From an uncultured Helicobacter sp. (GTDB lineage: Bacteria > Campylobacterota > Campylobacteria > Campylobacterales > UBA6016), in assembly GCA_964568395.1 (NCBI GenBank), contig CAZMPN010000003.1, positions 34,482 to 98,481 of the forward strand: a stretch of 64,000 nt of DNA. The letters are read 5' to 3'. Within the stretch, counting starts at the first letter, position 1. Each line of letters opens with the position of its first letter. The notes beneath the pieces were generated by a model. It was not told the DNA's origin. It ran no database searches and saw only the letters and a list, made by a program, of their open reading frames with translations. The position numbers and the translations under genes were made by a program. Shown one piece after another: positions 2 to 61,092 of the stretch.

Positions 2-1066
2 GACTTTATAGCCAACAAAACGACGATAACTGACATTAGCGTAAGCCTAATAACCCTCTTTTACGGCTCCAACGTCAGCTTTTTGCAACGCAAAATAGCA
101 AGGATAGCGCCCGGCGAAAACAAAGTAATCTCGACGTGCGGCGAAGAGCTGTCATATGACTATCTCATCATCGCCAACGGCTCAAGGACGTTTTTCCCCT
201 CCTGCGTAGATGGGCTATCGGAACATGCACACGGCGTCAAAAGCATAAAAAGGGCTTTCGAGTTTAAATTGAAATTTGAAGAGGCCATATATAAAAAAGT
301 GGAATCCGAAGGCGTTTGTAGCTTAAACCCCGATTTCAATATCGTCATAGGCGGCGGAGGGCTGTCTGGCGTGGAGATAGCCGCGGCAATGGCGGAGTAC
401 TCACAAAGATTTTTCGCAACTGGCGGATATGTTTGCGGCGGCATCTCCGTACACCTCATCGAAGGCTCGGCCGACGTACTAAACGGTCTAGACCGCTATC
501 TTGTTGAAAAAAGCAGAAAGAGACTCGAAAAGCTAGGCGTCAACATAGTTACCGGAAACAGGATACTAAAAGTCGAAGAACATAGCGTACATCTGTCGAA
601 CAACATGACGATACCTATGAACTTTATGATATGGACCGGCGGTATCGAAGTCAGGAAAATAGAAGGCGACGGCTTTGAGTATAATCAAAGAGGGCAGCTG
701 AAGGTAGACGAGTGTTTAAGGGTAAAAGGTTTTGACAATATATTCGCCATAGGAGATTGCGCCGAAATAGCGAACATAAACGGAAAAGTGTTGGCGCCTA
801 CGGCTATGCTGGCTGAATTTTCGGCAGATATTGCAGCCTGCAATATCATAGCAAGCAAAAACGGAAAAGGTCTCAAAACCGTAGATTTTGAGCTGCCAGG
901 AGTGCTTGTCGCATTAGGCGGCTACTATACGGTCGGTCTCGTATACAGTATAAAGCTTTCCGGCTTTATAGGATTTTTGGTCAAACAGACAGTCAGCCAC
1001 ATATACAAATGGCCGCTAACCAGACAATGCAAAAAAGCTCTCGCAAAATCTTGCCACAAAGGATAA
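2..1066 (+). CDS. ndh: Type II NADH dehydrogenase-like FAD-dependent oxidoreductase, 5'-partial
   Basis: Frame is open from base 2 with no stop before the ORF-track start at 83, so the gene begins before the window. Second Rossmann motif IVIGGGGLSGVEIA, WTGG, and FAIGDCA FAD motif. Confidence 0.8.
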   Translation, partial: DFIANKTTITDISVSLITLFYGSNVSFLQRKIARIAPGENKVISTCGEELSYDYLIIANGSRTFFPSCVDGLSEHAHGVKSIKRAFEFKLKFEEAIYKKVESEGVCSLNPDFNIVIGGGGLSGVEIAAAMAEYSQRFFATGGYVCGGISVHLIEGSADVLNGLDRYLVEKSRKRLEKLGVNIVTGNRILKVEEHSVHLSNNMTIPMNFMIWTGGIEVRKIEGDGFEYNQRGQLKVDECLRVKGFDNIFAIGDCAEIANINGKVLAPTAMLAEFSADIAACNIIASKNGKGLKTVDFELPGVLVALGGYYTVGLVYSIKLSGFIGFLVKQTVSHIYKWPLTRQCKKALAKSCHKG

Positions 1067-1069
1067 ACC

Positions 1070-3004
1070 GTGACAGAGTCCAAAATATATGAGATGCTCG
1101 GAAGCTATAAAATAAAGACGCCCAAATTCGCCTCTTTTAAGATAAACGAGACGATTAGCGTAGATTTCTTCCCGGTCGTAATCAAAATAGAATCCGAAAA
1201 GGTCGTACACAAAAGCGACTTTGGGGCGGTAAAACTAAACATCTCGTCAAACGAGGAACTAAACGCGGCGAAGCAAGAGATAATCTCCAATATAGCGGCC
1301 AAAGGCGTAACGCTTGACGAAACGGATAGCTTTATAGTCGTAGAGATGCTTAGCGGGCAAGAGCTTTACGCCGGGCTAGTCGACGACGAGATATTCGGCA
1401 AGACGATAGTATTCGGCAAAGGCGGCGTATTCCTTGAGATGTATAAAGACGTTTGCTACATAGATATATACGCCGGCGACGAAGAGATAAAAAGAGCCAT
1501 TAGACTTACGAAAATATCGAAGATTTTTGAAGGCTTCAGGGGTTTTGATTTTGATATAGAGATGGCGGTGGAGTTTATAAAATCGGTGCAAAACTTCGCC
1601 AAAGCAAATCCGGACATAGTAGAACTGGACTTCAATCCCGTGCTAGCCACAAAAGAGGGACTCAAGATAGTGGACGCCCGTATAAAAAGAGGGGAGCCGA
1701 AGCCGGAAAAACTGGGTACGCTTAGAAAAAACAGGCCAAACTTCTTTAGAAACGAAAGGGTGGCCCTAATAGGCGCCTCATCAGATCCGACAAAAGTAGG
1801 ATACGCTATAGCCAAAAACTCTCTTGTCTATAAAGGCGATATGTTCTTCGTAAACGCAAAAGGCGGCGAACTGTTCGGCAAAGAGCTCTACACGAGCGTC
1901 GCCGAGATAGACGGGGATATAGACACGGCCGTTATTACGATACCTTCAAAATTCGTCGTCGAGACGACAAAAGAGCTAGTCAAGAAAAACGTCAAAAACC
2001 TGATCATCATATCCGCCGGCTTTAAAGAGGTCGGAGACTACGACTCCGAGCGCATCATCGCCGAACTGGCGCGAGAGCACAACTTTAACGTCATAGGTCC
2101 AAACTGCCTAGGATACCTGCATGGCCAAAAAGAGCTAAATTTGACGTTTGGCATAGGTGGCCTCAGAAGCGGCGAGCTTGCGCTGCTGTCTCAATCGGGA
2201 GCCGTGCTTTCGGCGCTTATGGATAAGGCGTACGACGCAAGCGTAGGCTTTTCGCATCTTGTCTCTTGCGGCAACATGGTCGACCTGGACTTCGCGGAGA
2301 TGATAGATATGCTTAACGTTGAGGAAGGCTGCAAATACATCTCGATATATGCCGAAGGCATCCAAAACGGCAAGGAGTTTTTGAGGGCGATAAGAGAGAG
2401 CAAGAAAAAAGTCTATATATTCAAGACGGGAAAATCGGCCGAGAGCAAAAAAGCGGCGTTCTCACACACCGGAAATCTTAGCGGCAACTATGAGATGTTC
2501 AAGGGCCTCATAGAGTCCGTAGGAGCCAAGATAGAGGACAATATAGAGGCTCTGCTTTTCAACCCCCTAAACGAAGTGAACAACATCCTGATAGTGACAA
2601 ACGCGGGCGGCCCCGCTACGATTTTGACCGACTACATAATAGACCATGGCAGAAAGCTTTATCAACTCTCAAAAGAGGAGATTTCGGCCCTTGACGCCGT
2701 ACTGCCTTCGAACTGGTCAAAAAACAACCCGGTAGATATCATAGGGGACGCTATGGCCGATAGATACGAGGCCACCCTCAATATAGTCACCAAGTTTGAA
2801 AACGTAGACCTTATCTATCTGCTTGTAACCCCGCAATATATGACCGATGCGCTCAATATAGCCAAGCTTTGCGAAAGAGAGTGGGGCAAGAAGATATATC
2901 CGATACTCCTCGGCGGCCACGAAATGGACGAGGCGAAAAGCTATCTTAGGGCAAAACAAAAGCTGTTTTTCAAGACTTTGCAGTCGGCAACATCGTTTTT
3001 ATAA
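1070..3004 (+). CDS. Acetate--CoA ligase (ADP-forming) family, ATP-grasp domain N-terminal to the CoA-binding domain
   Basis: N-terminal VVIKIES..VHKSDFGAV and DFNPV..DARI (ATP-grasp); then VALIGAS, IIISAGFKE, GPNCLG, SQSGA and catalytic SHTG. Confidence 0.85.
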   Translation: MTESKIYEMLGSYKIKTPKFASFKINETISVDFFPVVIKIESEKVVHKSDFGAVKLNISSNEELNAAKQEIISNIAAKGVTLDETDSFIVVEMLSGQELYAGLVDDEIFGKTIVFGKGGVFLEMYKDVCYIDIYAGDEEIKRAIRLTKISKIFEGFRGFDFDIEMAVEFIKSVQNFAKANPDIVELDFNPVLATKEGLKIVDARIKRGEPKPEKLGTLRKNRPNFFRNERVALIGASSDPTKVGYAIAKNSLVYKGDMFFVNAKGGELFGKELYTSVAEIDGDIDTAVITIPSKFVVETTKELVKKNVKNLIIISAGFKEVGDYDSERIIAELAREHNFNVIGPNCLGYLHGQKELNLTFGIGGLRSGELALLSQSGAVLSALMDKAYDASVGFSHLVSCGNMVDLDFAEMIDMLNVEEGCKYISIYAEGIQNGKEFLRAIRESKKKVYIFKTGKSAESKKAAFSHTGNLSGNYEMFKGLIESVGAKIEDNIEALLFNPLNEVNNILIVTNAGGPATILTDYIIDHGRKLYQLSKEEISALDAVLPSNWSKNNPVDIIGDAMADRYEATLNIVTKFENVDLIYLLVTPQYMTDALNIAKLCEREWGKKIYPILLGGHEMDEAKSYLRAKQKLFFKTLQSATSFL

Positions 3005-3019
3005 AAAGGGAAGGCCGCT

Positions 3020-4810
3020 ATGCCGGGGACAGAAAACACAAAAAAGCTGCTAGCGGAAGTTGTCGAGCTCAGGAACTTCGTAGCAAAAACGGGGAGCGCA
3101 GTAGAAGGGTGTAAAAATCCAAAAAGCCTTATAAACATGAGGCACTATCTAAGGCTTAGACAAAAAGACAACACCGAACTCCAAGATAGGTTGACGAGAG
3201 TCGGCCTATCGTCCCTGGGCAGATCGCAGCCGCATATACTCCACTCCCTCGATTTGATAGTAGAGATGCTCTCCAGATGCCAAAACATTGAGTTCCAAAA
3301 TAGCGAAAACGCACTATCGATAGACGAGGCCGAAGAGATCATGGCCAAGAGGGCGACGATATTCGGCGGGGAGCCGAGACCAAAAAAAAGAGCCGAGACG
3401 AAAATCATGCTCACTCTGCCATCGGAGGCGGCAAAAGAGCCGTCGATGATAGAAGAGTTCGCAAACGCCGGAGTCGGGATATTCAGAATAAATACAGCGC
3501 ACGACGGCCCCGAGGAGTGGGGAGCGATGGCTTCAAAAATAGCCGAGCTAAACCAAAATCTGCATCCGCAAAACAAACTAAAAATCTACGTCGATCTGGC
3601 CGGCCCCAAGATAAGAACTGGAAACATCAGAAAAGTAAAGACGAAAATAAAACTTGAGGCCGGAACAAATCTATACATCACCAAAAAAACCGACAAAGAG
3701 ATATTTGAAAACGCTTACAGCATCGAGGTCGAACCAGAATTTTACAAAAAGGCGAAAAAAGAGGATGAGATACACCTGTCCACGCCCGGAGAAAAAGAGA
3801 GAAGGCTAAAAGTTCTGTCCAGAGGAAAGGACTACATAATCTGCGAGCTAAATAAAAAAATTACGCTTACGGAGAACAGTAGGCTTAGCATAAAGAGGAA
3901 AAAAGCCTTTTACGAAACGGGGATATTAAATATACCGGAAATCACGGAGGAGATAAGGCTCTTCGAGGGCGACACTCTATTTTTATCGATAGACGAGATC
4001 GTCGGATACGCCAAAAATAAAGATAAAAACGACGAAATCGGCGAATCTGCCGCGATCTTTTGCACGCAAAAAGAGTTTACGAAGGATGCGAAGGTCGGCG
4101 ACAAGGTATTCATAGACGACGGCAAAATAGGGCTTAGCGTAATACAAAAACAAAACGGCGGCCTATTGTGCAGGGTAATCCAAACCAAAGCGAAAGGCGA
4201 GACGCTAAAAGAAGAGAAGGGGATAAACTTTCCAGACAGCAGAACATTGGTCGACGCCATAACCGACGAAGACAGGAAGAATCTTGAATACGTACTGGAA
4301 TACGCGGATATACTAGGGGTTTCCTTCGCCCAAAGCGACAAGGACATCATCATGCTAAAGGATATACTGCGGGCAAACAACAAAGAACATATAGCGATAG
4401 TCGCGAAAATAGAGACCAAAATGGCCGTAAAAAATCTGCCTTCGATACTAGAAGCGCTTATGTATCACGAATTTGGCGGAATCATGATAGCCAGAGGGGA
4501 TTTGGCGATAGAGGTTGAGTTTGAGAATATGTCGTATCTGCAAGAGGAGATACTAGACCTTTGCGAGGCGGCGCATACTCCGGTGATATTCGCGACGCAA
4601 GTACTCGAAAACCAGATGAAAAACAACCTGCCTAGCCGTGCGGAAATCACCGACGCCGCTTTCGCCCAAAGAGCCGACTGCGTCATGCTCAACAAGGGAC
4701 CGTTTGCGATAAATACTATCAAAAAACTAGAGTTTATACTAACCAGAATGCACACCATCTTCAAAAAAAACAGACTTCTTCTCGGCCCCTGCGATATATG
4801 GAATAGATGA
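3020..4810 (+). CDS. pyk: Pyruvate kinase, long atypical form
   Basis: RINTAH, DLAGPKIRTG, KGINFP, AKIET, ARGDLAIE, ATQVLE and PSRAEITD match pyruvate kinase A/B-domain motifs. Confidence 0.88.
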   Translation: MPGTENTKKLLAEVVELRNFVAKTGSAVEGCKNPKSLINMRHYLRLRQKDNTELQDRLTRVGLSSLGRSQPHILHSLDLIVEMLSRCQNIEFQNSENALSIDEAEEIMAKRATIFGGEPRPKKRAETKIMLTLPSEAAKEPSMIEEFANAGVGIFRINTAHDGPEEWGAMASKIAELNQNLHPQNKLKIYVDLAGPKIRTGNIRKVKTKIKLEAGTNLYITKKTDKEIFENAYSIEVEPEFYKKAKKEDEIHLSTPGEKERRLKVLSRGKDYIICELNKKITLTENSRLSIKRKKAFYETGILNIPEITEEIRLFEGDTLFLSIDEIVGYAKNKDKNDEIGESAAIFCTQKEFTKDAKVGDKVFIDDGKIGLSVIQKQNGGLLCRVIQTKAKGETLKEEKGINFPDSRTLVDAITDEDRKNLEYVLEYADILGVSFAQSDKDIIMLKDILRANNKEHIAIVAKIETKMAVKNLPSILEALMYHEFGGIMIARGDLAIEVEFENMSYLQEEILDLCEAAHTPVIFATQVLENQMKNNLPSRAEITDAAFAQRADCVMLNKGPFAINTIKKLEFILTRMHTIFKKNRLLLGPCDIWNR

Positions 4811-4860
4811 CGGTAATAAAAACGTCATAAAAAATATTAAAAATAGCATTTTTTTAATCT

Positions 4861-4878
4861 ACTCTTTAGTTAAAGAGT
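4861..4878. promoter_or_regulatory. Perfect 8-2-8 palindrome upstream of the glucan cluster, candidate operator
   Basis: ACTCTTTA-GT-TAAAGAGT read directly, ending 38 nt before the ATG at 4917 (SD AGGAG present). Confidence 0.35.
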
Positions 4879-4916
4879 GCAAACATAGATAAAACAACAT
4901 AACCACAGGAGATGCG

Positions 4917-7415
4917 ATGAAAGCTGTAGTAATGGCCGGCGGCTTTGGAACAAGAATACAACCACTGACACACTCGGTGCCGAAGCCGATGCTACCGATA
5001 CTAAACCGCCCTATGATGCAGCACATTATCGAAAAACTGAGAGACGCCGGCATTAAAGACATCGTGATACTCCTATATTTCAAACCGGAAATCATAAAGA
5101 ACCATTTCGGGGACGGCAGCGATTTTGGCGTCAACATAGAGTACGTTCTGCCGGATGACGACTACGGAACCGCCGGAGCCGTAAAGTGTGCCGAGAAGTT
5201 TTTGAACGAAGAGTTTATAGTAGTCAGCGGCGACCTTGTCACCGACTTTGATCTCGGCGAGATAATCGCGTTTCACAAGAAAAAAGAGTCGCTCTTGACA
5301 ATCACGCTGACTCCCGTAGCCGACCCGTTGCAGTTTGGCGTCGTAATATCCTCTCCCGAGGGCAGGATACAGCGCTTTTTGGAAAAACCGAGCTGGGGAG
5401 AGGTGTTTTCGGACACCATAAATACCGGGATTTATATATTGGAGCCGGGCATACTTGATTTTATACCCGAGGGCGCCAATTTCGACTTTGCGAAAGATCT
5501 TTTTCCGGCGCTTATGAAAAATAACATTACGCTTTGGGCGTGCTCCGTAAAGGGATACTGGAGGGATGTCGGAAATCCGGAAAGCTACAGGGAAGTACAA
5601 AAAGACCTGCTAAACGGCAAAGTATCGCTAGAGATAAGAGGCGACAAAAAAGAGTTTGAAGGCGGCGTGGCATATCTGGAAGAGGGCGCCAGAATATCCG
5701 ACAATGCGCTAGTTGAAGGCATAGTCGTACTCGGCAAGAACAGCGTAGTAAGCGACGGCGCGAAACTAAAAAACACCGTGCTCGGATGCAAAAGCACGGT
5801 CGGGAAAAATACGATACTGGAAGACGTAACGGTCTGGGATAACGTAACCATAGGAGATAAGTCCTCCATCCACAATAGCGTCATCTGCTCCAAAAACAGG
5901 CTCGGCAAAAAAGTAAAGGTCACAAAAGGGTTAATATTGGCCGAAGGGTGCGAAATAGGGGATCTCTGCTCTTTTGAAAACGACGTCATGGTATGGCCGG
6001 ACAAGATAGTCGAGGACGCCAGCATCATCAGCACGAACATAGTCTGGGGGAATAAATACAAAAACTCGATCTTCGAAGGCGGCGTGGTAAGCGGCAGGAC
6101 AAACGTGGAGCTATCGTGCGAGATGGCCATAAAACTAGCCGAAGCGTTCGGCTCGATGCTTCCGGTCGGCAGCAAGGTGTACCTCTCGAGAGACTATCAC
6201 AAATCATCAAGGATGCTCAAAAGGGCGTTTTTCTCAGGCCTTCTCTCTTCCGGTATCAACGTGGTGGATATCCATATAGCCCCTTCGAACGTCGCCAGAT
6301 TTAGCATCAAAGAGAGTTCCGATATCGTCGCCGGAGTACACTTCAGGCAGTCCGTCACGAACCAGCAAAATACCGAAATCCTATTCTTTACGAACGAAGG
6401 TCTCTATATAGATACCAATACTGAAAAAAATTGCGAGAGAATATTCTTCAGAGAGAGTTTTAGACGCGTAAACTTCGACGAGATAGGCCAAATATCAGAA
6501 AAGGTGCATCTGAAGGAAAAATACAAGAAATCAGTCATTAAGACGCTAAATACGGACGCCATAAACGCAAAAAAACCGAAAATAGCGGTAGACCTTATGT
6601 TCGGTTCGACGGCGGACATATACCCAGAGATTCTGACGGCGCTGAACGTAGACAACATCGTGCTTAACGCCTATGCAGACGATAGAAAACTAAACAAACT
6701 TCCGGCGATAATAGAAAAATCAAAAGAGGATTTATCGAAGATAGTCAAGCATTTGGATATGGATATGGCATATCTTCTCTATCCAAACGGGCAGAAGATA
6801 GAGATAATATGCAAAAGCGGGATTGTTTTGTGTCCGCACATCCAGCTTCTGACCGTTCTGAAGCTTTTGGATATGACCTCGAAACAGCAAAAGTCGAAAG
6901 TATATCTGCCGGTAAGCACGCCTGATTTTATGGACGGCGAATTTGAAAACCTTATAATCGAAAGAGGAAAGTTTAACGGCGTAAAAGCGAGCAAGCTAAA
7001 AGAGTACGATCTGATAGCGAACCTGAACGGCAATTTTGCGTTTTGCGAATTCGCGTACAGCTATGACGCCATTTTTGCCAGCATCAAGATACTAGAGATG
7101 GCCTCATCCGCCGAAATGACGCTGGAAGATATAAAAAGCTCGGTCGGAAACTTCTATTTCCACTACGAAAAAGTGCCTTGCACCTCGAACCTAAAAGGCA
7201 AAATGATGAGAAAATTCATGGAGGCTTCGGTCGGCAAAGAGGCGTCTTTCATCGACGGCGTCAAAATATCCATACGAAAAAACGATTGGATTTTGATGCT
7301 CCCGGATCAGCACGCCGACTGTCTAAATATATATGTGCAAGCGGCCGAGCAAAGTGACGGAGAGGCCATATTCACAGAGTTCGCCACAAAAATAGCAGAG
7401 TGGTCCAAAGAGTAA
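4917..7415 (+). CDS. Sugar-phosphate nucleotidyltransferase (mannose-1-P guanylyltransferase-like) fused to hexapeptide repeats and a degenerate phosphohexomutase domain
   Basis: MAGGFGTRIQPLT, KPMLP, FLEKP, YWRDVG; left-handed beta-helix repeats; C-terminal PGM/PMM-like region ending IDGVKI..WILMLP. Confidence 0.85.
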   Translation: MKAVVMAGGFGTRIQPLTHSVPKPMLPILNRPMMQHIIEKLRDAGIKDIVILLYFKPEIIKNHFGDGSDFGVNIEYVLPDDDYGTAGAVKCAEKFLNEEFIVVSGDLVTDFDLGEIIAFHKKKESLLTITLTPVADPLQFGVVISSPEGRIQRFLEKPSWGEVFSDTINTGIYILEPGILDFIPEGANFDFAKDLFPALMKNNITLWACSVKGYWRDVGNPESYREVQKDLLNGKVSLEIRGDKKEFEGGVAYLEEGARISDNALVEGIVVLGKNSVVSDGAKLKNTVLGCKSTVGKNTILEDVTVWDNVTIGDKSSIHNSVICSKNRLGKKVKVTKGLILAEGCEIGDLCSFENDVMVWPDKIVEDASIISTNIVWGNKYKNSIFEGGVVSGRTNVELSCEMAIKLAEAFGSMLPVGSKVYLSRDYHKSSRMLKRAFFSGLLSSGINVVDIHIAPSNVARFSIKESSDIVAGVHFRQSVTNQQNTEILFFTNEGLYIDTNTEKNCERIFFRESFRRVNFDEIGQISEKVHLKEKYKKSVIKTLNTDAINAKKPKIAVDLMFGSTADIYPEILTALNVDNIVLNAYADDRKLNKLPAIIEKSKEDLSKIVKHLDMDMAYLLYPNGQKIEIICKSGIVLCPHIQLLTVLKLLDMTSKQQKSKVYLPVSTPDFMDGEFENLIIERGKFNGVKASKLKEYDLIANLNGNFAFCEFAYSYDAIFASIKILEMASSAEMTLEDIKSSVGNFYFHYEKVPCTSNLKGKMMRKFMEASVGKEASFIDGVKISIRKNDWILMLPDQHADCLNIYVQAAEQSDGEAIFTEFATKIAEWSKE

Positions 7416-9559: not shown

Positions 9560-9571
9560 AAGGCTGACACA

Positions 9572-11608
9572 ATGCAAACGAAACTACTACTTGGCCTTCA
9601 CTCCCATCAACCGATAGACAATTTTGATGCCGTGGTTTACGAGGCGATAGAAAAAAGCTATAAACCGTTTTTTGAAACGGTAAAGAACGACGACTGGATG
9701 AGATTTTCCCTGCATATCAGCGGATGGCTTTTTGAGTTTATAAAAAATAACGACAAAGAGCTATTCTCCCTTATAAAATCGTGCTACGACAAAGGGATGA
9801 TAGAGTTTTTCTCAGGCGGGTTTTATGAGCCTATTTTGGCGGCCATACCGAGACGCGACAGGTTTTTGCAGATAAAAAAGATGAACCGATTTTTGCTAAA
9901 CAACTTCGGTGCGAAGCCGAGAGGGCTATGGCTGACGGAGAGGGTGTGGAGCGAGTCCATAGTCGAGGACTTGTGCGGACTGGATATCGAGTACATCCTA
10001 ACCGACGATTATCACTTCATAGCTGCCGGATACGACGAAAGCTCCCTTGAAGGGTACTTTCTGACGGAGGAGGGCGGCAGCAAACTAGGCGTATTCCCTA
10101 TTTCGAAAAAACTAAGATATCTCATTCCGTTCAAAAAAGCGTCTTCGGCTATAGCGGAACTAGAAAAAGAAGAAAGGGCCGACAAGGCCGCGGTGATATT
10201 TGACGACGGCGAGAAGTTCGGGCTTTGGCCAAAAACTTACGAGTGGGTATACGAAAAAGGGTGGCTAAGGGAGTTTATAGACGGCATAAAGGCTTCGGAG
10301 AAGATAAAAATGATGCATTTTGGCGAATACTTCGACTCCCAAAAACCGCTTGGACTCGCATATCTACCTGAGGTGTCGTACTACGAGATGGGAGAGTGGT
10401 CGTTAAATCCGAGCGACGGAGCGCTCATAGAAAACGTCAAACATCACGCAGCCGGGGTTTTCGGGGCAGAAGCGGCTGACAAGTTCGTCAAAGGCGGAAT
10501 CTGGAAAAACTTCTTTTTAAAATATCCGGAAAGCAATAGGATACATAAAAAAACAGTTCGTCTCTCCGCGTTTGCGAAGCAGATAAACAGCGAACAGTTC
10601 GACGAAATGCTCCTCAAGACGGAAGCGAACGACGCCCTTTGGCACGGCGTATTCGGCGGAGTATATCTGCCGAATCTGAGAGATAACTGCTACAAACACA
10701 TCATAGAGTGCGAAAAGAAGCTGGGAATAGCGAAAGCCATAGAAATATCCGACGAAAACTTCGACGGATACGAAGAGGTAAGATTAAAAAACGAGAAGTT
10801 CCTAGTCCTTTTCGAAGCCAAAAACGGCGCGCAGATGACCGATTTTAGCTCTTTTGACTCACTCTTTAATTATCAAAACACACTCACCAGGCGCAAAGAA
10901 GCTTATCACCAGAAATTCTTTGCGCAAAACGGCGTAGCAGACGATAAGACGGATGAGGGTATTGATACGATACACGACATAACGATAGAGGGAGCCGAGA
11001 AGCTAAGGGAAAACCTATTTTACGACTGGTATCAAAAAAACTCCTTCGTGGAGCACATATCGGACGACTCCTTCGATATTCACTCGTTTTTTGCCTGCTC
11101 CTTCGTGGAATACGGCGACTTTGCAAACCAGCCGTTTGAGCTAAAAAGCCATTCTAAAAACTCTGTTTTATTTGAAAGAGATGGCGGAATATACGTAAAC
11201 GGACATAAGTTCGGTACAAAAATATCCAAAAACTTCGAGATTACGGAAAATAGTCTCGAATTTAAAATAGAGCTTGCGACCGACGCAAACGGGGAATTTG
11301 TTTTTGCGGAAGAGTTCAATCTGCATTTTTGCGACTACGATACGCTTGCGGCTAACAACGAAATCGTATCCGACAACAAAACGGCTTTTGCCGGCATCGA
11401 TTCGCTAACGCTAAGAGATACGGTAAACGGCAAAGAGATAGTGTTCGAGCTGGACGCCGAGTTCGATACGATAATAGCGCCGACCATAACCGCCAGCCAA
11501 AACGAAAAAGGCGCCGAACTATGCACGCAAGGAGTATCGATCTCCTTTTATAAAAAATTCAGCAGCTCGACCAGATTCGGCGGGAAACTGGCGATAAAGG
11601 ATATTTGA
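9572..11608 (+). CDS. GH57 4-alpha-glucanotransferase/alpha-amylase (AmyA type)
   Basis: HSHQP, GGFYEPIL, LWLTERVW, DDGEKFGLWP, SYYEMGEW, NDALWHGVFGGVYLP. Confidence 0.88.
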   Translation: MQTKLLLGLHSHQPIDNFDAVVYEAIEKSYKPFFETVKNDDWMRFSLHISGWLFEFIKNNDKELFSLIKSCYDKGMIEFFSGGFYEPILAAIPRRDRFLQIKKMNRFLLNNFGAKPRGLWLTERVWSESIVEDLCGLDIEYILTDDYHFIAAGYDESSLEGYFLTEEGGSKLGVFPISKKLRYLIPFKKASSAIAELEKEERADKAAVIFDDGEKFGLWPKTYEWVYEKGWLREFIDGIKASEKIKMMHFGEYFDSQKPLGLAYLPEVSYYEMGEWSLNPSDGALIENVKHHAAGVFGAEAADKFVKGGIWKNFFLKYPESNRIHKKTVRLSAFAKQINSEQFDEMLLKTEANDALWHGVFGGVYLPNLRDNCYKHIIECEKKLGIAKAIEISDENFDGYEEVRLKNEKFLVLFEAKNGAQMTDFSSFDSLFNYQNTLTRRKEAYHQKFFAQNGVADDKTDEGIDTIHDITIEGAEKLRENLFYDWYQKNSFVEHISDDSFDIHSFFACSFVEYGDFANQPFELKSHSKNSVLFERDGGIYVNGHKFGTKISKNFEITENSLEFKIELATDANGEFVFAEEFNLHFCDYDTLAANNEIVSDNKTAFAGIDSLTLRDTVNGKEIVFELDAEFDTIIAPTITASQNEKGAELCTQGVSISFYKKFSSSTRFGGKLAIKDI

Positions 11609-11609
11609 A

Positions 11610-12638
11610 TTGTCCCACTACAGATATAGCGAACTAAAAGACAACTGGGTAATAATATCGCCAAAACGTGTCCGCAGACCGTCGGATTTCGAGCTATCTT
11701 CGGCAGAGGCGTACGATGTAGACTCCCCTTTCGTATACGGCAACGAGCACAAAACGCCGTCCGAGATATACGCCATCAGGGATTACGGCTCAAAAAAAGA
11801 CTCTCCGGGCTGGAAGGTGCGCGTAGTCCCAAACAAATATAATGCGTTGGAGATAGAAAAAAATCCAAATAGCGATTTTGACGGAATTTTTGAAAGAATG
11901 GACGGATTTGGGGCTCATGAAATCATTATCGACACGCCAAGATTTCCGTCAAAATTCCACGATCTAAGAATAGAAGAGGCTGCGCTCGTATTTGCGGCCG
12001 CTAGAGACAGAAGCGCAGACCTCTCCAGAGACATCAGAATCAAATACGTAAATATCTTTAAAAACCAAGGCTCGCTTGCCGGAGCCAGCATATCGCATCC
12101 GCACACGCAGATAATAGCGATGCCGTTTATTCCAAAAAATATCTTGACCGAAATAGAGCAATCCAGAAAACATTTCGAAACGACAGGAAGGTCGTTAATA
12201 GGGGATATCGTAGCCGGTGAAATAAGGGCTAAAGTAAGAGTGGTGGAAGAGAGCGACAACTTCGTGCTATATTGCCCATATGCGTCTTTTTGGCCTTTTG
12301 AGACCGTTCTTTGCCCAAAAGCGGCCGTCAAGGATTTTTCGCTGCTTGACGAATCGGAGCTTGCGGAGTTGGCGAAAATGACCTTGTATGCGCTAAAGCG
12401 CATCAATATGGCCCTAAAAGACGTCTCATATAATATATTTATAAAGACCGTACCTCCGAAAAGGGATGGAAGGGAGCCTAATTTCTACTACAAACTTGAC
12501 GAATTCTACCGGTGGCACATCGAGATAGTACCGAGGATACCCGTCATAGGCGGTTTCGAACTCTCAAGCGGCGTTTTTATAAATACGGTCACCCCGGAAG
12601 AGAGCGCTAAATTTTTGCGCTCAATTGTTGCGCTATAG
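11610..12638 (+). CDS. galT: GalT-like nucleotidyltransferase (HIT superfamily)
   Basis: R.RRP, VRVVPNKY, GAHEIII, catalytic HPHTQ, GGFELSSG. TTG start with AAGGA upstream. Confidence 0.85.
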   Translation: MSHYRYSELKDNWVIISPKRVRRPSDFELSSAEAYDVDSPFVYGNEHKTPSEIYAIRDYGSKKDSPGWKVRVVPNKYNALEIEKNPNSDFDGIFERMDGFGAHEIIIDTPRFPSKFHDLRIEEAALVFAAARDRSADLSRDIRIKYVNIFKNQGSLAGASISHPHTQIIAMPFIPKNILTEIEQSRKHFETTGRSLIGDIVAGEIRAKVRVVEESDNFVLYCPYASFWPFETVLCPKAAVKDFSLLDESELAELAKMTLYALKRINMALKDVSYNIFIKTVPPKRDGREPNFYYKLDEFYRWHIEIVPRIPVIGGFELSSGVFINTVTPEESAKFLRSIVAL

Positions 12639-12649
12639 TTAAAAAAGTT

Positions 12650-12658
12650 TGCTATAAT
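12650..12658 (+). promoter_or_regulatory. Extended -10 sigma70 promoter (TGnTATAAT)
   Basis: TGCTATAAT lies in the 54-nt gap before the ATG at 12693. Confidence 0.6.
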
Positions 12659-12692
12659 CTAAGCTAATGCACATAAGAAAAAGGTAAACGTC

Positions 12693-13325
12693 ATGGATAC
12701 AAAAACGAGCGTAGTACCTATTGAGGCAAATATAGAGAAGGATAGTTTTTCTTCAAATGTACACGGTGCATCCGTCTTTGCCGAAGAGGCAAAGGACTAT
12801 GCCGGAGCCGATTACAAAATACCGGATAGTTACGGCGTGGATACGCTAAAGCTTATGCCGGTCAACGTAAATACGGTATACATATATTGGGAGATTACCG
12901 ATAAGCTTATACAAAATTATCAATTCGCCACTTTCGCGCTTAGACTGCTAGAAATAGACGGCGAAAACGAAAAAGAGATACTCGGCTTCTACTTTAAAGA
13001 GACGGTATCCGGCAAATACGCAAACGCCCATATGCCGTCAAAACGCCTTATGGCCATCATCGGCGGCATAGACTCGAACGGCAGATTTACGGAGCTTTTG
13101 CGCTCAAACAAGATAACGATGCCGAGCGACTCCCTATGCGCTTCGTCGGAAGAGACATGGATGAGCAAGCAGTCGGAGTGGACGGAGCTTATAAAGGCCA
13201 GCGTATCGCACTTTTCACACGCGAAATCTTCCGTGAGCATCATAAAAGAGATGGAATTTCTAAAAAAATATGGCGAAAAAGCTGCCTTCGGACAATCTAG
13301 CTTTGAGCTTCCGAAAAAGGATTAG
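12693..13325 (+). CDS. DUF4912-like protein
   Basis: IPDSYG..TLKLMPVN..TVYIYWEI resembles the DUF4912 core; sits directly before a GH57 branching enzyme. Confidence 0.65.
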   Translation: MDTKTSVVPIEANIEKDSFSSNVHGASVFAEEAKDYAGADYKIPDSYGVDTLKLMPVNVNTVYIYWEITDKLIQNYQFATFALRLLEIDGENEKEILGFYFKETVSGKYANAHMPSKRLMAIIGGIDSNGRFTELLRSNKITMPSDSLCASSEETWMSKQSEWTELIKASVSHFSHAKSSVSIIKEMEFLKKYGEKAAFGQSSFELPKKD

Positions 13326-13328
13326 GTT

Positions 13329-14912
13329 ATGCCAAAAGGCTATTTTGTTCCCGTACTGCATTCGCATCTACCTTTCGTAAAGCATCCCGGATTCGACTAC
13401 TTCTTGGAAGAGCATTGGCTGTTTGAGGCCATTAGCGAGACGTATATTCCGCTGCTTATGGGTTTTAAGGACCTCAAGGACAGAGGGATAAACTTCAAGA
13501 TCACGATATCGCTTACACCGCCTCTATGCGAAATGCTGGCAGACGACTACCTGAGACAAAAATACCACGAACATCTCCAAAAGATGATTGGTCTTTGCGA
13601 AAAAGAGGTAGAGAGAACAAAAGAAGACGCCTACTTCAGAGACGTCGCCAGGTTCTACCTAGAGAGGTTTAGCTCCCTAAAGGAGTTTTTTGAAGGATTT
13701 CTAAATTATGACGTTCTAAACGGCTATAGGCACTTTGCCGCCTCCGGAAATATAGAGATCATAACATGCGGCGCGACGCACGGGTTTTTGCCGCTAATGT
13801 CCGCAAATCAGAAAGCCGTAGAGGTACAGATAGAAGTAGCCGTCGCATCGCACAAAAAACATTTCGGAAGAGCCCCTAACGGCATATGGCTGCCGGAGTG
13901 CGCATACTATGACGGCCTGGACGAAATACTAGACAAAAACGGAATTAAATTCTTTTTTATGGATTCGCACGGCCTGGTATACGCCAAACCTACGCCGAAA
14001 TTCGGCGTTTTTGCGCCGATATATACGCCAAAAGGCGTTGCGGCGTTCGGCAGGGATCCGGATAGCTCCAAGCAGGTGTGGAGCTCCAAAGAGGGATATC
14101 CCGGCGATGTCAACTATAGGGATTTTTACAGGGATATCGGATACGATCTTGACTTCGACTATGTAAAACCGTACATATGCCCCGACGGGACGCGCGTGTT
14201 TACTGGACTCAAATACTACCGTATCACCTCATCCGCCGACTACAAAGAGGTCTACAATAGGCAAAACGCTCTTTCCAGAACAAAGGAGCACGCCGCAAAC
14301 TTCCATTTTAACAGAGAGAAGCAGATAGAGTATCTGAGCGAATTCATGGATAGACCGCCGATGATAGTCTCTCCGTATGATGCGGAGCTTTTCGGACACT
14401 GGTGGTTTGAGGGTCCTGAATTTTTGATGTCCGTTTTTGAGGAAATGGATAAACACAAGGTCGTCGAGGCGATTACTCCGATGGAGTATCTAGGGCTATA
14501 CGATACAAACCAGGTGGCGCAGCCAAATCCATCGTCATGGGGCGACAAAGGCTATTATGACGTCTGGATAAACGGCGGCAACGACTGGATATATAGACAT
14601 CTGCACTTCATGGCGGATAAGATGTGCGAGCTGGCGGATAGATACAAAAACTCCAAAGATGCGACCGCCGATAGACTTTTAAATCAAATGGCAAAAGAGC
14701 TGCTATTGGCGCAAAGCTCCGACTGGGCTTTTTTGATGACGACAAAAACGGCGGTCGAATACAGCACCAAAAGAACCAGGGAACACATATCCAATTTTAT
14801 AAAACTGCTCGATATGCTGGAAGACGGCGGTTTGGATGAAGAGTTCCTTAGCGCGGTAGAGGATAAAAACTCGATATTCCAAGGGCTCGACTTTAGGATC
14901 TACGCCTCTTGA
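13329..14912 (+). CDS. GH57 1,4-alpha-glucan branching enzyme
   Basis: LHSHLPFV, IWLPEC (branching-type Glu-Cys), YDAELFGHWWFEG, SSWG, LAQSSDWAF. Confidence 0.9.
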   Translation: MPKGYFVPVLHSHLPFVKHPGFDYFLEEHWLFEAISETYIPLLMGFKDLKDRGINFKITISLTPPLCEMLADDYLRQKYHEHLQKMIGLCEKEVERTKEDAYFRDVARFYLERFSSLKEFFEGFLNYDVLNGYRHFAASGNIEIITCGATHGFLPLMSANQKAVEVQIEVAVASHKKHFGRAPNGIWLPECAYYDGLDEILDKNGIKFFFMDSHGLVYAKPTPKFGVFAPIYTPKGVAAFGRDPDSSKQVWSSKEGYPGDVNYRDFYRDIGYDLDFDYVKPYICPDGTRVFTGLKYYRITSSADYKEVYNRQNALSRTKEHAANFHFNREKQIEYLSEFMDRPPMIVSPYDAELFGHWWFEGPEFLMSVFEEMDKHKVVEAITPMEYLGLYDTNQVAQPNPSSWGDKGYYDVWINGGNDWIYRHLHFMADKMCELADRYKNSKDATADRLLNQMAKELLLAQSSDWAFLMTTKTAVEYSTKRTREHISNFIKLLDMLEDGGLDEEFLSAVEDKNSIFQGLDFRIYAS

Positions 14913-15727
14913 ATATCACCTATATCGATTGGGGCGGCACCAATTTCAGGTGTGTCGTGGAAGAGGGCGGTCAAAGCGTTTTTTACGCAAAGCCTAGCAT
15001 CGAGATAGACATAATCTCTGAATTAAAAGAGATTTTCAGGCTTCATCCGAATATAACAAAAATCGGCATATCGTTTGCAGGGCAGACAAAAGATAACAAA
15101 ATCATCTCAGCCCCGAACATACAAATAAAAGAGCTTGATCTAAACAAGGTATTCGACTACAAAAAAGAGTTCATCGTAGAAAACGACCTAAAATGCGCTC
15201 TTTTGGCCGAGGCCGAATACTTCTGCGAGCAAAATATCGCAGTCATATATGTTGGAACCGGCATAGGAAGCGCGTATATGGACGGTGGAAAAACAGTCAG
15301 AGGCTTTTTAAATAGCGCCGGAGAAATAGGTCATATACCATACATAAAAACAAACGCCGTATGCGGATGCGGCAAAGATAACTGTCTGGAGCTCACCGCC
15401 TCCGGTAGCGGCTTAGCCAAAAAGGCGGCGGCGGCGGGCGTCAAATTTGAAAACCTCTCAAAACTAAAAGAAAGCGGTATGCTCGCAGGGGCGGTAGACG
15501 AATTCGAGGACGCCCTAGGCTACGCCGTCTCGCTGGTAGTAACCATCCTGAATCCAAGAATAGTAGTCTTGGGCGGCGGCATAGTAGCCGCAAACGGTTA
15601 TCTTGTGGAAAACATAAAAGAATATGTCGCTAAAAACGCTTTCGCCTATAATGCGAAAGAGTGCGAAATCAAGCCCTCAAAACTTGAAGACGGCTCTTTA
15701 ACGGGTGCGAAACTGCTTTTAAGATGA
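14909..15727 (+). CDS. ROK family sugar kinase, glucokinase-like
   Basis: DWGGT, END, GTGIG, GEIGH and Zn motif CGCG..CLE. Confidence 0.85.
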   Translation: MNITYIDWGGTNFRCVVEEGGQSVFYAKPSIEIDIISELKEIFRLHPNITKIGISFAGQTKDNKIISAPNIQIKELDLNKVFDYKKEFIVENDLKCALLAEAEYFCEQNIAVIYVGTGIGSAYMDGGKTVRGFLNSAGEIGHIPYIKTNAVCGCGKDNCLELTASGSGLAKKAAAAGVKFENLSKLKESGMLAGAVDEFEDALGYAVSLVVTILNPRIVVLGGGIVAANGYLVENIKEYVAKNAFAYNAKECEIKPSKLEDGSLTGAKLLLR

Positions 15728-16794
15728 TCCAAAAGCTTATCTTCCTCTCCATCTTATCCCTGTTGTTTATTCTATTCTCCCTCTATTTTTACTACAGGCT
15801 CCTAAACTTTTTTACAAAGCGCAAAAAGAGAAAGCTTCTGATTACGGCTTTGCTGATATTATGGGAGGCCGGCTTTGTCGCAGTGTCGGCAAGCTCAAAT
15901 TTTTGGCATATAAGGGCATTGTTTGCTCCAGTGCTCGGCTTTTTGCTTTTCGCGCTAGTTTTTGCCGTGTGCATCGAGTGTTTAAATCCATTCGGGTTGG
16001 CGCAAAAGGCCAAATACCCCATCTTGGCGTTGTTTGCGGCGACATTTGCATTATCTATAGCTAACGGCACAAAAGAGCCGACTATCAAAAACGTCACGGC
16101 TTATACGAAATACAAGCAATTAAAGGGATTAAAAGCCGTATTTATAGCGGACACCCATATAGACCCGTCAAAACAAGAGTTTGCCAAAAGGCTCGCCATG
16201 CGCATCAGCGGCATAAAGCCGGATCTGCTCTTGATTTCTGGGGATTTAAGCGACGGCAGAACGGCAGAGCTAAAGGCCGGCTTAGACGCTTTTAAAAATA
16301 TCAGGCCGAGATATGGGGCTTTTTTTGTGCCTGGCAATCATGAATACTACTACGGCGACTTTAGGGAGAAGATGGAGTATCTTAGCTCTCTTGGAATAAC
16401 GGTTTTGGAAAATACGAACAAAAGCGTCGCAACACGCTTTGGAGAGTTTGCCGTAGCCGGCCTGACGGATCCCGCGGCCGCCAGAGTCAATCTAGAAGAG
16501 CCGAATCCCCAAAAAGCCATGGTTAGCGCTCAAAAACCGCTGCTGCTGCTAGCCCACCAGCCCAAAACGGCAAAAGAAGCTCTGGTTCATAGGCCTGATT
16601 TTGTCTTTTGCGGACACACGCATGACGGACAGATTTGGCCGTTTAGATATATAGTCTCTCTCGTCCAGCCGTATATATACGGCGAGTACAAAAGCGGCAA
16701 TAGCGATATATTCGTTACGTCGGGAGTAGGAATATGGGGGCCTCCGATGAGGCTATTTAGCCAATCGGAGATTGTAGTGGTCAGCTTTATTTAG
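15724..16794 (+). CDS. Membrane-anchored metallophosphoesterase (YkuE-like)
   Basis: Several N-terminal hydrophobic segments; DTH, GDLSD, GNHE, GHTHDGQ. Confidence 0.85.
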   Translation: MIQKLIFLSILSLLFILFSLYFYYRLLNFFTKRKKRKLLITALLILWEAGFVAVSASSNFWHIRALFAPVLGFLLFALVFAVCIECLNPFGLAQKAKYPILALFAATFALSIANGTKEPTIKNVTAYTKYKQLKGLKAVFIADTHIDPSKQEFAKRLAMRISGIKPDLLLISGDLSDGRTAELKAGLDAFKNIRPRYGAFFVPGNHEYYYGDFREKMEYLSSLGITVLENTNKSVATRFGEFAVAGLTDPAAARVNLEEPNPQKAMVSAQKPLLLLAHQPKTAKEALVHRPDFVFCGHTHDGQIWPFRYIVSLVQPYIYGEYKSGNSDIFVTSGVGIWGPPMRLFSQSEIVVVSFI

Positions 16795-32681: not shown

Positions 32682-32711
32682 TTTCGTAAAATATATTTAG
32701 AGGATGTTTGG

Positions 32712-39556: not shown

Positions 39557-39699
39557 TAGAGGATATATTGTTATCGTCGGCGTTTTTAGTAAGCCGTAAA
39601 TGTTTTGAAATATTTAAAAGCTATAGTCGCGCTTTCAAAAAAATATTTCGCCGCCACGTACTATTCGACAAAAATAAACAATCAAAAAAGCAAAATACC

Positions 39700-61040: not shown

Positions 61041-61092
61041 TATTTTAAGCCAGAATTGTTTTTGTAGAATAGGATAATTTTATTTTCGAGGG

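Follow-up and report, generated by a model that had tools for sequence, protein, structure and literature searches.

A synthase-less GH57 glucan gene array of uncultured Campylobacterales, joined to genes for glycolysis, ADP-forming acyl-CoA synthetase, and NDH-2

Layout of the array

The window analysed here, a 64-kb stretch of DNA, comes from an uncultured sulfur-cycle lineage of the Campylobacterales, for which the array genes point to Sulfuricurvum as the nearest named genus. Positions 2–16794 are occupied by a single-strand gene array with intergenic gaps of −4 to 106 nt, which encodes an NDH-2, an ADP-forming acyl-CoA synthetase, a pyruvate kinase (PK) paralogue, a nucleotidyltransferase, three GH57 enzymes, a GalT-like protein, a DUF4912 protein, and a ROK kinase (Table 1). 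The spacings between successive genes, from 2–1066 through the metallophosphoesterase gene, are 3, 15, 106, −1, 12, 1, 54, 3, −4, and −4 nt, and the stop/start overlaps noticed in the original prediction are real (gaps of −1, −4, and −4 nt). The last gene of the strand encodes a metallophosphoesterase that is clade-specific and poorly conserved (39–51% identity in the clade), and it is uncertain whether it takes part in the pathway.

Table 1. Features of the window discussed in the text, with predicted identities
Feature	Positions	Strand	Basis
NDH-2-like flavoprotein (type II NADH:quinone oxidoreductase)	2..1066	+	Pyr_redox_2; C-terminal 354 of ~399 aa, N-terminus before window start
ADP-forming (NDP-forming) acyl-CoA synthetase, fused beta-alpha type	1070..3004	+	ATP-grasp_5 + CoA_binding + Succ_CoA_lig + Ligase_CoA_2
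Atypical long pyruvate-kinase paralogue (PRK14725-like)	3020..4810	+	PK barrel at aa 126–235 and 310–558
Sugar-1-phosphate nucleotidyltransferase (NDP-glucose pyrophosphorylase-like) + LbH (left-handed beta-helix) + degenerate phosphohexomutase-like domain	4917..7415	+	NTP_transferase domain matches
GH57 amylopullulanase-like (debranching/endo-acting)	7415..9559	+	E 1e-116 to Aquifex amylopullulanase 8zyi
GH57 4-alpha-glucanotransferase (disproportionating)	9572..11608	+	PF03065 + AmyA-A_glucT_m + AmyA-gluTrfs_C; 1k1w E 9e-137
GalT-superfamily nucleotidyltransferase	11610..12638	+	TIGR00209 113.6 bits vs 102.1 cut-off; HPH at aa 163–165
Extended −10 promoter-like box TGCTATAAT	12650..12658	+	In 54-bp galT–DUF4912 gap
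DUF4912 protein	12693..13325	+	PF16258
GH57 glycogen branching enzyme	13329..14912	+	PF03065 + BE_C; T. maritima AmyC 2b5d E 3e-173
ROK-family sugar kinase	14909..15727	+	PF00480; ExGH + CxCGxxxC motifs
Membrane-anchored metallophosphoesterase	15724..16794	+	PF00149 at aa 137–301, hydrophobic N-terminus
OprB carbohydrate-selective porin	39568..41019		

The window holds the downstream two-thirds of the whole array, which comprises 16 intact genes over approximately 23 kb of the same strand, in the order glgP–pyk–gap–pgi–pfkA–ndh2–acd–long pyk, followed by NDP-sugar pyrophosphorylase–GH57 amylopullulanase–GH57 4-alpha-glucanotransferase–GalT-like–DUF4912–GH57 branching enzyme–ROK kinase–metallophosphoesterase. 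The glycolytic route called for by the original prediction lies directly upstream, as the contig of the window (305 kb) and seven sister MAGs carry glgP, the classical pyk, gap, pgi, and pfkA; the seven are the same-species MAG L162, with whose locus the contig is collinear, and six further clade MAGs. The upstream glgP (L162:2423–4075) encodes a GT35 alpha-glucan phosphorylase, with 471 bits against TIGR02094 (cut-off 191.7). Dozens of genomes show this gene order again, and the arrangement is therefore not due to chance. The promoter-like box and the 106-nt gap suggest that the array is split into two or more transcription units, within which genes may be co-transcribed.

Predicted enzymes

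The assignment of three GH57 enzymes with intact Glu/Asp pairs holds, as PF03065 scores 197.5, 153.8, and 136.3 bits (gathering cut-off 21.2) and the catalytic residues align with those of solved members. In the amylopullulanase-like protein, whose reading frame opens with GTG at 7400 and whose likely start is ATG at 7415, E286/D387 align with E256/D352 of AaApu (8zyi), and the C-terminal 199 aa form an extra domain with no Pfam match. E123/D212 of the glucanotransferase align with E123/D214 of T. litoralis 1k1w, and the protein is predicted to be a functional equivalent of MalQ. E190/D351 of the branching enzyme align with positions 185/349 of AmyC, its best solved relative, and BE_C (PF09210) scores 117 bits; T. 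maritima AmyC has been demonstrated to be a glycogen branching enzyme (PMC6616209). The scores against the NCBIfam equivalogs of Thermococcales and Thermus (366 and 296, with cut-offs of 1000 and 920) argue only against orthology to those enzymes, because the models are lineage-specific. The ORFs scanned over the 64 kb of the window included no GH13, GH77, or glycosyltransferase protein.

The nucleotidyltransferase was correctly recognized at the outset, with NTP_transferase and LbH domains and a GGFGTRIQP loop that is invariant in 31 homologues, although it reaches only 127.5 bits against the GlgC equivalog TIGR02091 (cut-off 424.9); overlooked was a degenerate phosphoglucomutase (PGM)-like half at aa ~380–832. 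When aligned to 9du5 and 1wqa, the PGM signature loops of this half (phosphoserine TASHNP, metal-binding DxDxDR, sugar-binding GEx(S/N)G, and phosphate-binding RxSxTEP) read RQSVTN, YPNGQK, ANLNGN, and LPDQHAD, and three of the four are lost in all 31 homologues. These loops speak against an identity as alpha-D-phosphohexomutase (PGM/PMM), and the fused half, like that of the widespread 830-aa proteins annotated as nucleotidyltransferase/phosphoglucomutase, is probably no mutase. Since the domain looks inactive, the step from glucose-1-phosphate to glucose-6-phosphate is not covered by the array. A separate four-domain PGM is encoded in the related cluster L206.

The GalT-like protein, upheld by its HPH motif within the stretch SHPHTQ (aa 162–167) and by its score above the TIGR00209 cut-off, lies nearest to Arabidopsis ADP-glucose phosphorylase (1z84, E 1.5e-51, versus 5e-20 for E. 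coli GalT) and is a predicted GalT/ADP-glucose phosphorylase of HIT superfamily branch III, a resemblance that bears on the annotation of the GalT-like genes of such clusters. The DUF4912 protein, likewise identified as first proposed, is encoded directly upstream of the branching enzyme in 63 of 76 loci, and in P0093–P0120 GlgA carries the domain as a C-terminal fusion. Its core is predicted with moderate confidence to be an FnIII-like beta-sandwich, and by this genomic association DUF4912 is predicted to assist the GH57 branching enzyme and GlgA as a non-catalytic partner, which would give the domain a functional annotation. The ROK kinase, whose family motifs bear out the initial call, contains no DNA-binding domain, has NCBIfam matches that all fall below cut-offs, and is presumed to be a glucokinase.

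The flavoprotein that opens the window matches the solved NDH-2 structures best (B. subtilis YjlD 1e-41, C. thermarum 2e-38, and S. aureus 2e-34), and its full-length orthologue (L162:8798–9997) has two GxGxxG motifs, at aa 9 and 163. SQR ranks well below the NDH-2 structures, with an E value of only 1e-16 and a match to the N-terminal part only. With two dinucleotide-binding folds and these nearest proven enzymes, the protein is a predicted NDH-2, as in the original prediction, and would use NADH and quinone. The acyl-CoA synthetase (ACD) placed upstream of the GH57 genes by that prediction combines four ACD domains with both phospho-histidine motifs (HKSD with H47, and SHTG with H466) and is a predicted NDP-forming enzyme, although it scores 378 bits against TIGR02717 (cut-off 567), and its matches to the acetate, 3-hydroxypropionate, and 4-hydroxybutyrate ligase models all fall below cut-offs; its reaction is presumed to be the conversion of acetyl-CoA to acetate with ATP formation. 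The pyruvate kinase of the window does have the PK barrel, but it is an atypical paralogue that is extended by 125 aa at the N-terminus and lacks the C-terminal regulatory domain (PK_C), and the classical enzyme is encoded farther upstream. The motifs K-I-E, RGDL, and ATQ are kept, MLSGES is shortened to MLN, and the score against NF011314 is 527 bits (cut-off 642). No enzyme converting pyruvate to acetyl-CoA was found within the 64-kb window.

Linkage in relatives and the search for a synthase

The proposed module depended on a link of the GH57 genes to acd, pyk, and NDH-2, and this link, with the long pyk, is kept in eight clade genomes and in the distant lineages L177 and L174/L198. The order in L177 is gap–pgi–pfk–ndh2–acd–pykL, followed by glycogen genes; pfk adjoins acd in L173, L176, and L179, and glycolytic genes are interleaved with glycogen genes in L012, L018, L032, L071, L174, L198, and L206. 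This recurrent linkage of glycolysis, acd, NDH-2, and glycogen genes supports a glucan store that would be burned via glycolysis to acetate. The neighbours might instead be co-located but uncoupled, the synthetase activating acetate or another acid for assimilation, NDH-2 serving respiration in general, and only the GH57 part being related to glucan. NDP-forming acyl-CoA synthetases are reversible and the substrate of the present one is not readable from sequence, the long pyk and the nucleotidyltransferase gene lie 106 nt apart, and acd is not near the glycogen genes in Sulfuricurvum (L169–L172, L175, and L183) or in a termite-gut clade. However, acd sits between pfk/ndh2 and the PK paralogue, 3 and 15 nt from its neighbours, and no fewer than five lineages show the adjacency of pfk and acd (L177, L173, L176, L179, and the clade of the window). 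PFK and PK catalyse the glycolytic steps that are physiologically one-way, and their presence is sensible only in the catabolic direction, which leaves the uncoupled arrangement improbable.

The glucan synthase expected by the original prediction did not turn up: no alpha-1,4-glucan synthase was found in the 64-kb window (ORF scan and tblastn), approximately 9 kb upstream, or in any fetched clade locus, and no GT5/GT3 glycogen synthase of the classical GlgC–GlgA pathway was found in the window or the clade loci. In most relatives, a GT5 glgA directly follows galT, whereas here a 54-bp gap takes its place, with the promoter-like box exactly at the glgA position. The TATAAT of this box is kept in all eight clade members and its TGn in six of the eight, and TGnTATAAT occurs only three times on both strands of the window.

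The absence of glgA could mean a loss of storage, with the array serving mainly the catabolism of external alpha-glucans, maltodextrins, or glucose, which the amylopullulanase, the glucanotransferase, and the ROK kinase would feed into glycolysis. This route would require neither GlgP nor PGM, and it is consistent with the lack of glgA in the window and clade loci, with L016/L177, which is without glgA and glgP over 33 kb, with the OprB porin of the window, and with the fact that one of the glgA-less clades consists of termite-gut MAGs. Against it, no glucan-handling genes of the cluster are better conserved than those for the branching enzyme and the NDP-sugar pyrophosphorylase, which serve synthesis only, with the branching enzyme foremost (82–97% aa identity within the clade); no sugar ABC, PTS, or MFS importer is encoded within or beside the array; and the GH57 homologues in relatives belong to GlgA-containing storage clusters. 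External catabolism is thus unlikely, if somewhat less so than the uncoupled arrangement.

Alternatively, several Campylobacterales lineages, including this one, may have dispensed with GlgA and yet make branched glucan, with the GH57 glucanotransferase and/or phosphorylase elongating chains by a synthase-independent route and the nucleotidyltransferase/pseudo-mutase and GalT-like protein handling NDP-glucose. In E. coli glgA mutants fed maltose, chain growth is driven by MalQ. The gene is missing from otherwise intact clusters in several groups that lie apart in the branching-enzyme tree, no glycosyltransferase is found near the glgA-less clusters, and glgA stands beside galT in every GlgA context looked up, which would make relocation unusual. 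However, the absence holds for the loci examined, the retention of the nucleotidyltransferase and of DUF4912 (a domain that elsewhere forms fusions with GlgA) fits a synthase that is still present, the phosphate levels of cells disfavour synthesis by phosphorylase, and an autotroph would have no obvious source of maltose, so that synthesis without GlgA seems a long shot. Either the synthase gene has trivially been relocated, or its absence marks a real gap in the picture of bacterial glucan synthesis.

Working model and known systems

The reading preferred here, with a probability of roughly 0.6, is that the array is an endogenous-fuel module, in which the cell would draw on stored glycogen for electrons and ATP once external donors give out. 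The storage-glucan module originally proposed stands as regards the conserved glycogen-type cluster, the glycolytic route, and the linkage, but not as regards a synthase, which was not found at the searched loci. During synthesis, the nucleotidyltransferase would make NDP-glucose, a synthase not encoded here would elongate the chains, and the branching enzyme, with DUF4912 as adaptor, would add branches. During mobilisation, GlgP would free glucose-1-phosphate, the amylopullulanase would debranch and cut, and the glucanotransferase would disproportionate the oligosaccharides and free glucose, which the ROK kinase would convert to glucose-6-phosphate. PGI, ATP-PFK, GAPDH, and pyruvate kinase would then yield pyruvate, a pyruvate oxidoreductase encoded elsewhere would form acetyl-CoA, and the ADP-forming synthetase would release acetate with a gain of ATP, while NDH-2 would transfer the electrons of the NADH formed by GAPDH to the quinone pool.

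C. jejuni and H. pylori are without PFK, and complex I of C. jejuni is without NuoE/F (PMC4178425). Because this NADH-oxidising module is missing in C. jejuni, the role proposed for NDH-2 fits if complex I of the present lineage resembles that of C. jejuni, as we infer. The presence of an NDH-2 gene in the array favours re-oxidation of glycolytic NADH by respiration, via quinones, and the earlier description of the glucan as fermented is doubtful. Of the two triggers named with it, donor starvation fits better, and acceptor shortage is doubtful on the same grounds.

In many sulfidic, oil, sludge, and vent habitats with fluctuating electron donors and acceptors, the dominant organisms are Campylobacterota that oxidise sulfur and hydrogen, and their survival through donor or acceptor gaps is poorly known. 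The array offers a testable circuit, from glycogen through an EMP pathway with PFK to acetate and ATP, with NADH passing to NDH-2, in a lineage usually deemed non-glycolytic, and this circuit predicts leakage of acetate to neighbouring organisms.

GH57 glycogen clusters have been known since 2014, when a vent-specific cluster for glycogen production and utilisation was described in the Epsilonproteobacteria Sulfurimonas autotrophica, Nitratiruptor sp. SB155-2, and Sulfurovum sp. NBC37-1 (Zhang & Sievert 2014, PMC3958643), and the window array is a variant of these. The two share the branching enzyme, a GH57 protein, an ‘alpha-amylase’, GalT, the ROK glucokinase, a ‘phosphoglucomutase’, and glycogen phosphorylase, and both are linked to central carbon genes. 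The vent cluster has a glycogen synthase and is linked to the pyruvate dehydrogenase complex, a class I aldolase, and PGAM, whereas the array contains all of the co-located vent set (glgA, glgP, branching enzyme, GH57, GalT, ROK, and ‘PGM’) except glgA and is joined instead to pfkA, pgi, gap, two PK paralogues, the ADP-forming acyl-CoA synthetase, and NDH-2. Clusters of the Sulfuricurvum type (L009, L011, L026, and L202–L204) and of the Hydrogenothermaceae (L020) share the order nucleotidyltransferase–GH57 amylopullulanase–GH57 4-alpha-glucanotransferase–GalT–...–DUF4912–branching enzyme–ROK, with branching enzymes 64–68% identical to that of the window, but in these clusters a GT5 glgA stands between galT and DUF4912, glgP follows rok, and acd of Sulfuricurvum lies elsewhere.

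The logic of E. coli glgBXCAP, namely NDP-glucose formation, branching, debranching, and phosphorolysis, is shared, with GH57 enzymes replacing GH13 GlgB/GlgX and GH77 MalQ; the nucleotidyltransferase is no GlgC equivalog (127 versus 425 bits), and GlgA was not found at the loci searched. The nearest characterised GH57 homologues, which have the same catalytic pairs, are, from the Thermococcales, the T. litoralis glucanotransferase 1k1w and the TK1436 and PH branching enzymes (3n8t, 5wu7), together with AaApu (PMC12106739) and AmyC (PMC6616209); these are thermophile enzymes studied singly, and the window amylopullulanase adds a C-terminal domain of ~200 aa. The synthetase shares its domain set and both phospho-histidine motifs with the archaeal-type ACD, which gives one ATP per acetyl-CoA, but is known here from its sequence, in a bacterial chemolithotroph lineage and beside genes for glycolysis and NDH-2.

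Gene content of the array and its upstream extension

All large open reading frames of window positions 2-16794 lie on the + strand (Table), and the genes follow one another at spacings of 3, 15, 106, -1, 12, 1, 54, 3, -4, and -4 nt. The original prediction of a GH57 glucan cluster was borne out by the open reading frames, the domain assignments, the solved-structure relatives, and the catalytic Glu/Asp pairs, which align with those of solved enzymes in all three GH57 proteins. T. maritima AmyC, a relative of the third of these, has been demonstrated to be a branching enzyme (PMC6616209). The public gene call for the amylopullulanase begins at 7475, losing the conserved N-terminal HQP region; ATG 7415 overlaps the preceding stop by 1 nt, and a start there fits the N-terminus of the Aquifex enzyme. 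The 596-aa pyruvate kinase (PK) paralogue carries a 125-aa N-terminal extension, lacks the allosteric C-domain, and has the MLSGES motif shortened to MLN, and this long predicted PK accompanies the ADP-forming acyl-CoA synthetase gene (acd) in several lineages.

Genes of the array and of its upstream section
Feature	Position	Strand	Basis
NDH-2-like flavoprotein	2-1066	+	Domain scan; best relatives NDH-2 of B. subtilis, C. thermarum, and S. aureus
Fused ADP-forming acyl-CoA synthetase	1070-3004	+	Domain scan; both phospho-histidine motifs present
Pyruvate-kinase paralogue, 596 aa, PRK14725-like	3020-4810	+	Domain scan and motifs
Sugar-1-P nucleotidyltransferase with PGM-like half, 832 aa	4917-7415	+	Domain scan
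GH57 amylopullulanase homologue	7415-9559	+	E 1e-116 to the Aquifex enzyme of PMC12106739
GH57 4-alpha-glucanotransferase	9572-11608	+	E 9e-137 to T. litoralis 1k1w
GalT-like protein	11610-12638	+	Solved-structure relatives
DUF4912	12693-13325	+	Domain scan
GH57 branching enzyme	13329-14912	+	E 3e-173 to T. maritima AmyC
ROK kinase	14909-15727	+	Domain scan
Membrane metallophosphoesterase	15724-16794	+	Domain scan
glgP, classical pyk, gap, pgi, and pfkA, upstream of ndh2	L162:2423-9997; also L163-L167, L187	same strand	

Several other assignments were considered and ruled out. NDH-2 structures score far higher than sulfide:quinone reductase for the first open reading frame, across its full length, and no family match for a hidden glycosyltransferase was obtained in the C-terminal 200 aa of the amylopullulanase or in the N-terminus of the metallophosphoesterase. 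No tRNA or Rfam elements occur in the window. Farther along, an 886-aa protein on the - strand (27557-30217) combines Cache-type sensor domains with a C-terminal CheW domain, with no methyl-accepting signalling domain detected in it. At 30966-33467, the gene for a TraG/VirD4-like type IV coupling protein stands alone, with a small HTH-like open reading frame after it and no further conjugation genes seen nearby; it may be the remnant of an integrated element. Upstream of two tandem PAS-GGDEF-EAL paralogues of 538 and 559 aa (59424-62772), a histidine kinase whose periplasmic domain is of the phosphonate-binding type (56101-58353) is encoded on the opposite strand.

The source contig of the window (305,711 bp) comes from an oil-metagenome run, and near-identical sequence is also found in bioreactor, sludge, sponge, and hot-spring metagenomes. 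In the same-species MAG L162, whose acd is 94% identical to that of the window, and in six more MAGs of the clade, the upstream genes follow on the same strand in the order pstS, then glgP–classical pyk–gap–pgi–pfkA–ndh2–acd, where glgP encodes an alpha-glucan phosphorylase. The glycolytic route, which the original prediction had left to be sought in the genome, thus lies immediately upstream. When contigs of the source run are aligned to L162, 13.8 kb of the contig that carries the window prove collinear with it, so that the full array comprises 16 genes in about 23 kb.

The 54-bp gap between galT and the DUF4912 gene holds an extended -10-like box, TGCTATAAT (window 12650-12658), whose TATAAT is kept in all eight clade members (the window lineage and seven sister MAGs) and whose position is the exact site of glgA in relatives. 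The box may serve as an internal promoter for DUF4912, the branching enzyme, and rok, and its conservation, together with the 106-nt gap, suggests at least one internal transcription start. Promoter and terminator consensus counts in the window are no higher than in shuffled controls and thus do not define an operon structure.

Linkage across relatives and the missing synthase gene

The core order nucleotidyltransferase–GH57 amylopullulanase–GH57 4-alpha-glucanotransferase–GalT–(glgA)–DUF4912–branching enzyme–ROK–(glgP) is common to Sulfuricurvum, other Campylobacterales, Hydrogenothermaceae, Desulfurellales, and Deferribacterales, and glycogen genes with interleaved or adjoining glycolytic genes occur in the related loci L012, L018, L032, L071, L074/L174, L198, and L206. 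A pfk gene adjoins acd in five or more lineages (the window clade, L177, L173, L176, and L179), three of which have ndh2 together with acd. The predicted linkage of acd, pyk, and NDH-2 with the GH57 genes is therefore kept in the clade and recurs outside it, but is not universal, since neither Sulfuricurvum nor a termite-gut clade has acd near the glycogen genes. The environmental Campylobacterales MAGs L016, L041, L043, L167, L173, and L177 carry this cluster under public record titles of 'Helicobacter cetorum', 'Helicobacter pylori PMSS1', or 'Desulfosporosinus', which look like mislabels.

Among 32 related loci that hold galT with sufficient flanking sequence, 18 have a GT5 glgA, directly after galT in 14. 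In the window, its seven sister MAGs, L016/L177, five MAGs from termite gut, and L056, galT is instead followed directly by DUF4912 or the branching enzyme; a glgA-less cluster of the L056 type is also carried by a cultured relative, Calditerrivibrio. Searches of the 64-kb window and of the examined flanks of L016/L177 and L036 found no glycosyltransferase. Comparison of the source-run contigs with the Sulfuricurvum cluster yielded no glgA piece at the organism's depth of about 39x, although this comparison is insensitive and also missed the known-present glgP. A GlgA profile search of 5.8 billion proteins gave 7981 matches, and four of the best 120 were inspected for context; all four adjoin galT in standard clusters of other organisms. 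An alignment-based GTDB scan for glgA (at least 600 rows, with the query genomes themselves unrecovered) and a single-protein GTDB scan (10 loci, none from the clade) are uninformative on the clade. In a branching-enzyme tree built by neighbour joining, without support values, the glgA-less groups take separate positions, an indication that glgA was lost or relocated several times independently. The branching enzyme is still the best conserved of the cluster's glucan-handling genes. A putative glgA elsewhere in the genome is the simplest reading of its absence from the array.

Accessory proteins of the cluster

The PGM-like half of the nucleotidyltransferase (aa ~380-832; window 6054-7415) is routinely annotated as a phosphoglucomutase. 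Alignment with archaeal PGM/PMM structures reveals that only the serine of the TASHNP loop is kept, and that the metal-binding DxDxDR motif and the sugar and phosphate loops are lost, while the substitute motifs HFRQS, YPNGQK, and M.PDQ are conserved in 31 of 31 homologues from three phyla. The half is most likely a non-catalytic appendage of the pyrophosphorylase, probably a pseudo-enzyme or regulatory domain, and perhaps senses sugar-phosphate. In the marine relative L206, the cluster holds a stand-alone PGM with all four domains, and also an FBPase, beside its nucleotidyltransferase/pseudo-mutase fusion (L206:9100-10716, 13019-13428).

The GalT-like protein resembles Arabidopsis ADP-glucose phosphorylase much more closely than it does the GalT of E. 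coli. One group of Campylobacterales clusters (L023:3111-5729; L199-L201) encodes it fused in frame to the GH57 amylopullulanase in an 872-aa protein, where it stands in place of the C-terminal domain of the window protein; this fusion is a Rosetta-stone link between both proteins. At 63 of 76 loci, a free DUF4912 gene immediately precedes the one for the GH57 branching enzyme, and in many GT5 synthases of ~610-657 aa (P0093-P0120, among the best 120 of the 7981 profile matches) DUF4912 is joined to the GlgA C-terminus. Its core is predicted with moderate confidence (pLDDT 70-88) as an FnIII-like beta-sandwich, a fold more in keeping with an adaptor or binding domain than with an enzyme. Nothing pairing GH57 with DUF4912 or with ADP-glucose phosphorylase was found in the literature, and no bacterial paper was among the matches listed for ADP-glucose phosphorylase.

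Proposed working and relation to known glycogen clusters

From sequence and synteny, on which the whole account is based, a storage pathway can be proposed, with flux directions and conditions that we infer from gene content. Glucan would be synthesized from NDP-glucose, supplied by the nucleotidyltransferase, by a synthase encoded at an unlocated site and by the GH57 branching enzyme. During mobilisation, GlgP would release glucose-1-P and the amylopullulanase would debranch, while the glucanotransferase would release glucose for phosphorylation by the ROK kinase, a hydrolytic branch that would dispense with a mutase. PGI, ATP-PFK, GAPDH, and PK would then lead to pyruvate, a pyruvate oxidoreductase encoded elsewhere would form acetyl-CoA, and the ADP-forming synthetase would convert this to acetate and ATP. 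An OprB-family carbohydrate-selective porin is encoded 23 kb from the cluster (39568-41019) and bears on the rival idea of external sugar use.

Glycolytic NADH would pass through NDH-2 to the quinone pool. The complex I of C. jejuni lacks NuoE/F and oxidizes NADH poorly, and PFK is absent from C. jejuni and H. pylori (PMC4178425); NDH-2 beside pfk and gap would therefore be a sensible outlet. Such an outlet points to respiration-linked incomplete oxidation, and the fermentation to acetate originally envisaged is not favoured. Of the proposed use when donors or acceptors run out, donor starvation with an acceptor still present fits better than acceptor starvation, given the NDH-2 in the array.

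A vent-specific cluster for glycogen production and utilisation has already been listed in S. autotrophica, Nitratiruptor, and Sulfurovum, comprising glycogen synthase, phosphorylase, branching enzyme, a GH57 protein, an 'alpha-amylase', GalT, a ROK kinase, and a 'phosphoglucomutase', and adjoining a pyruvate dehydrogenase complex (Zhang & Sievert, PMC3958643). Judged by gene content, the window array is a variant of this kind, with the same glucan toolkit. The vent cluster has a glycogen synthase, whereas the window array has no cluster-linked one; and in place of pyruvate dehydrogenase, the window array is joined to pfkA, pgi, gap, two PK paralogues, the ADP-forming acyl-CoA synthetase, and NDH-2.
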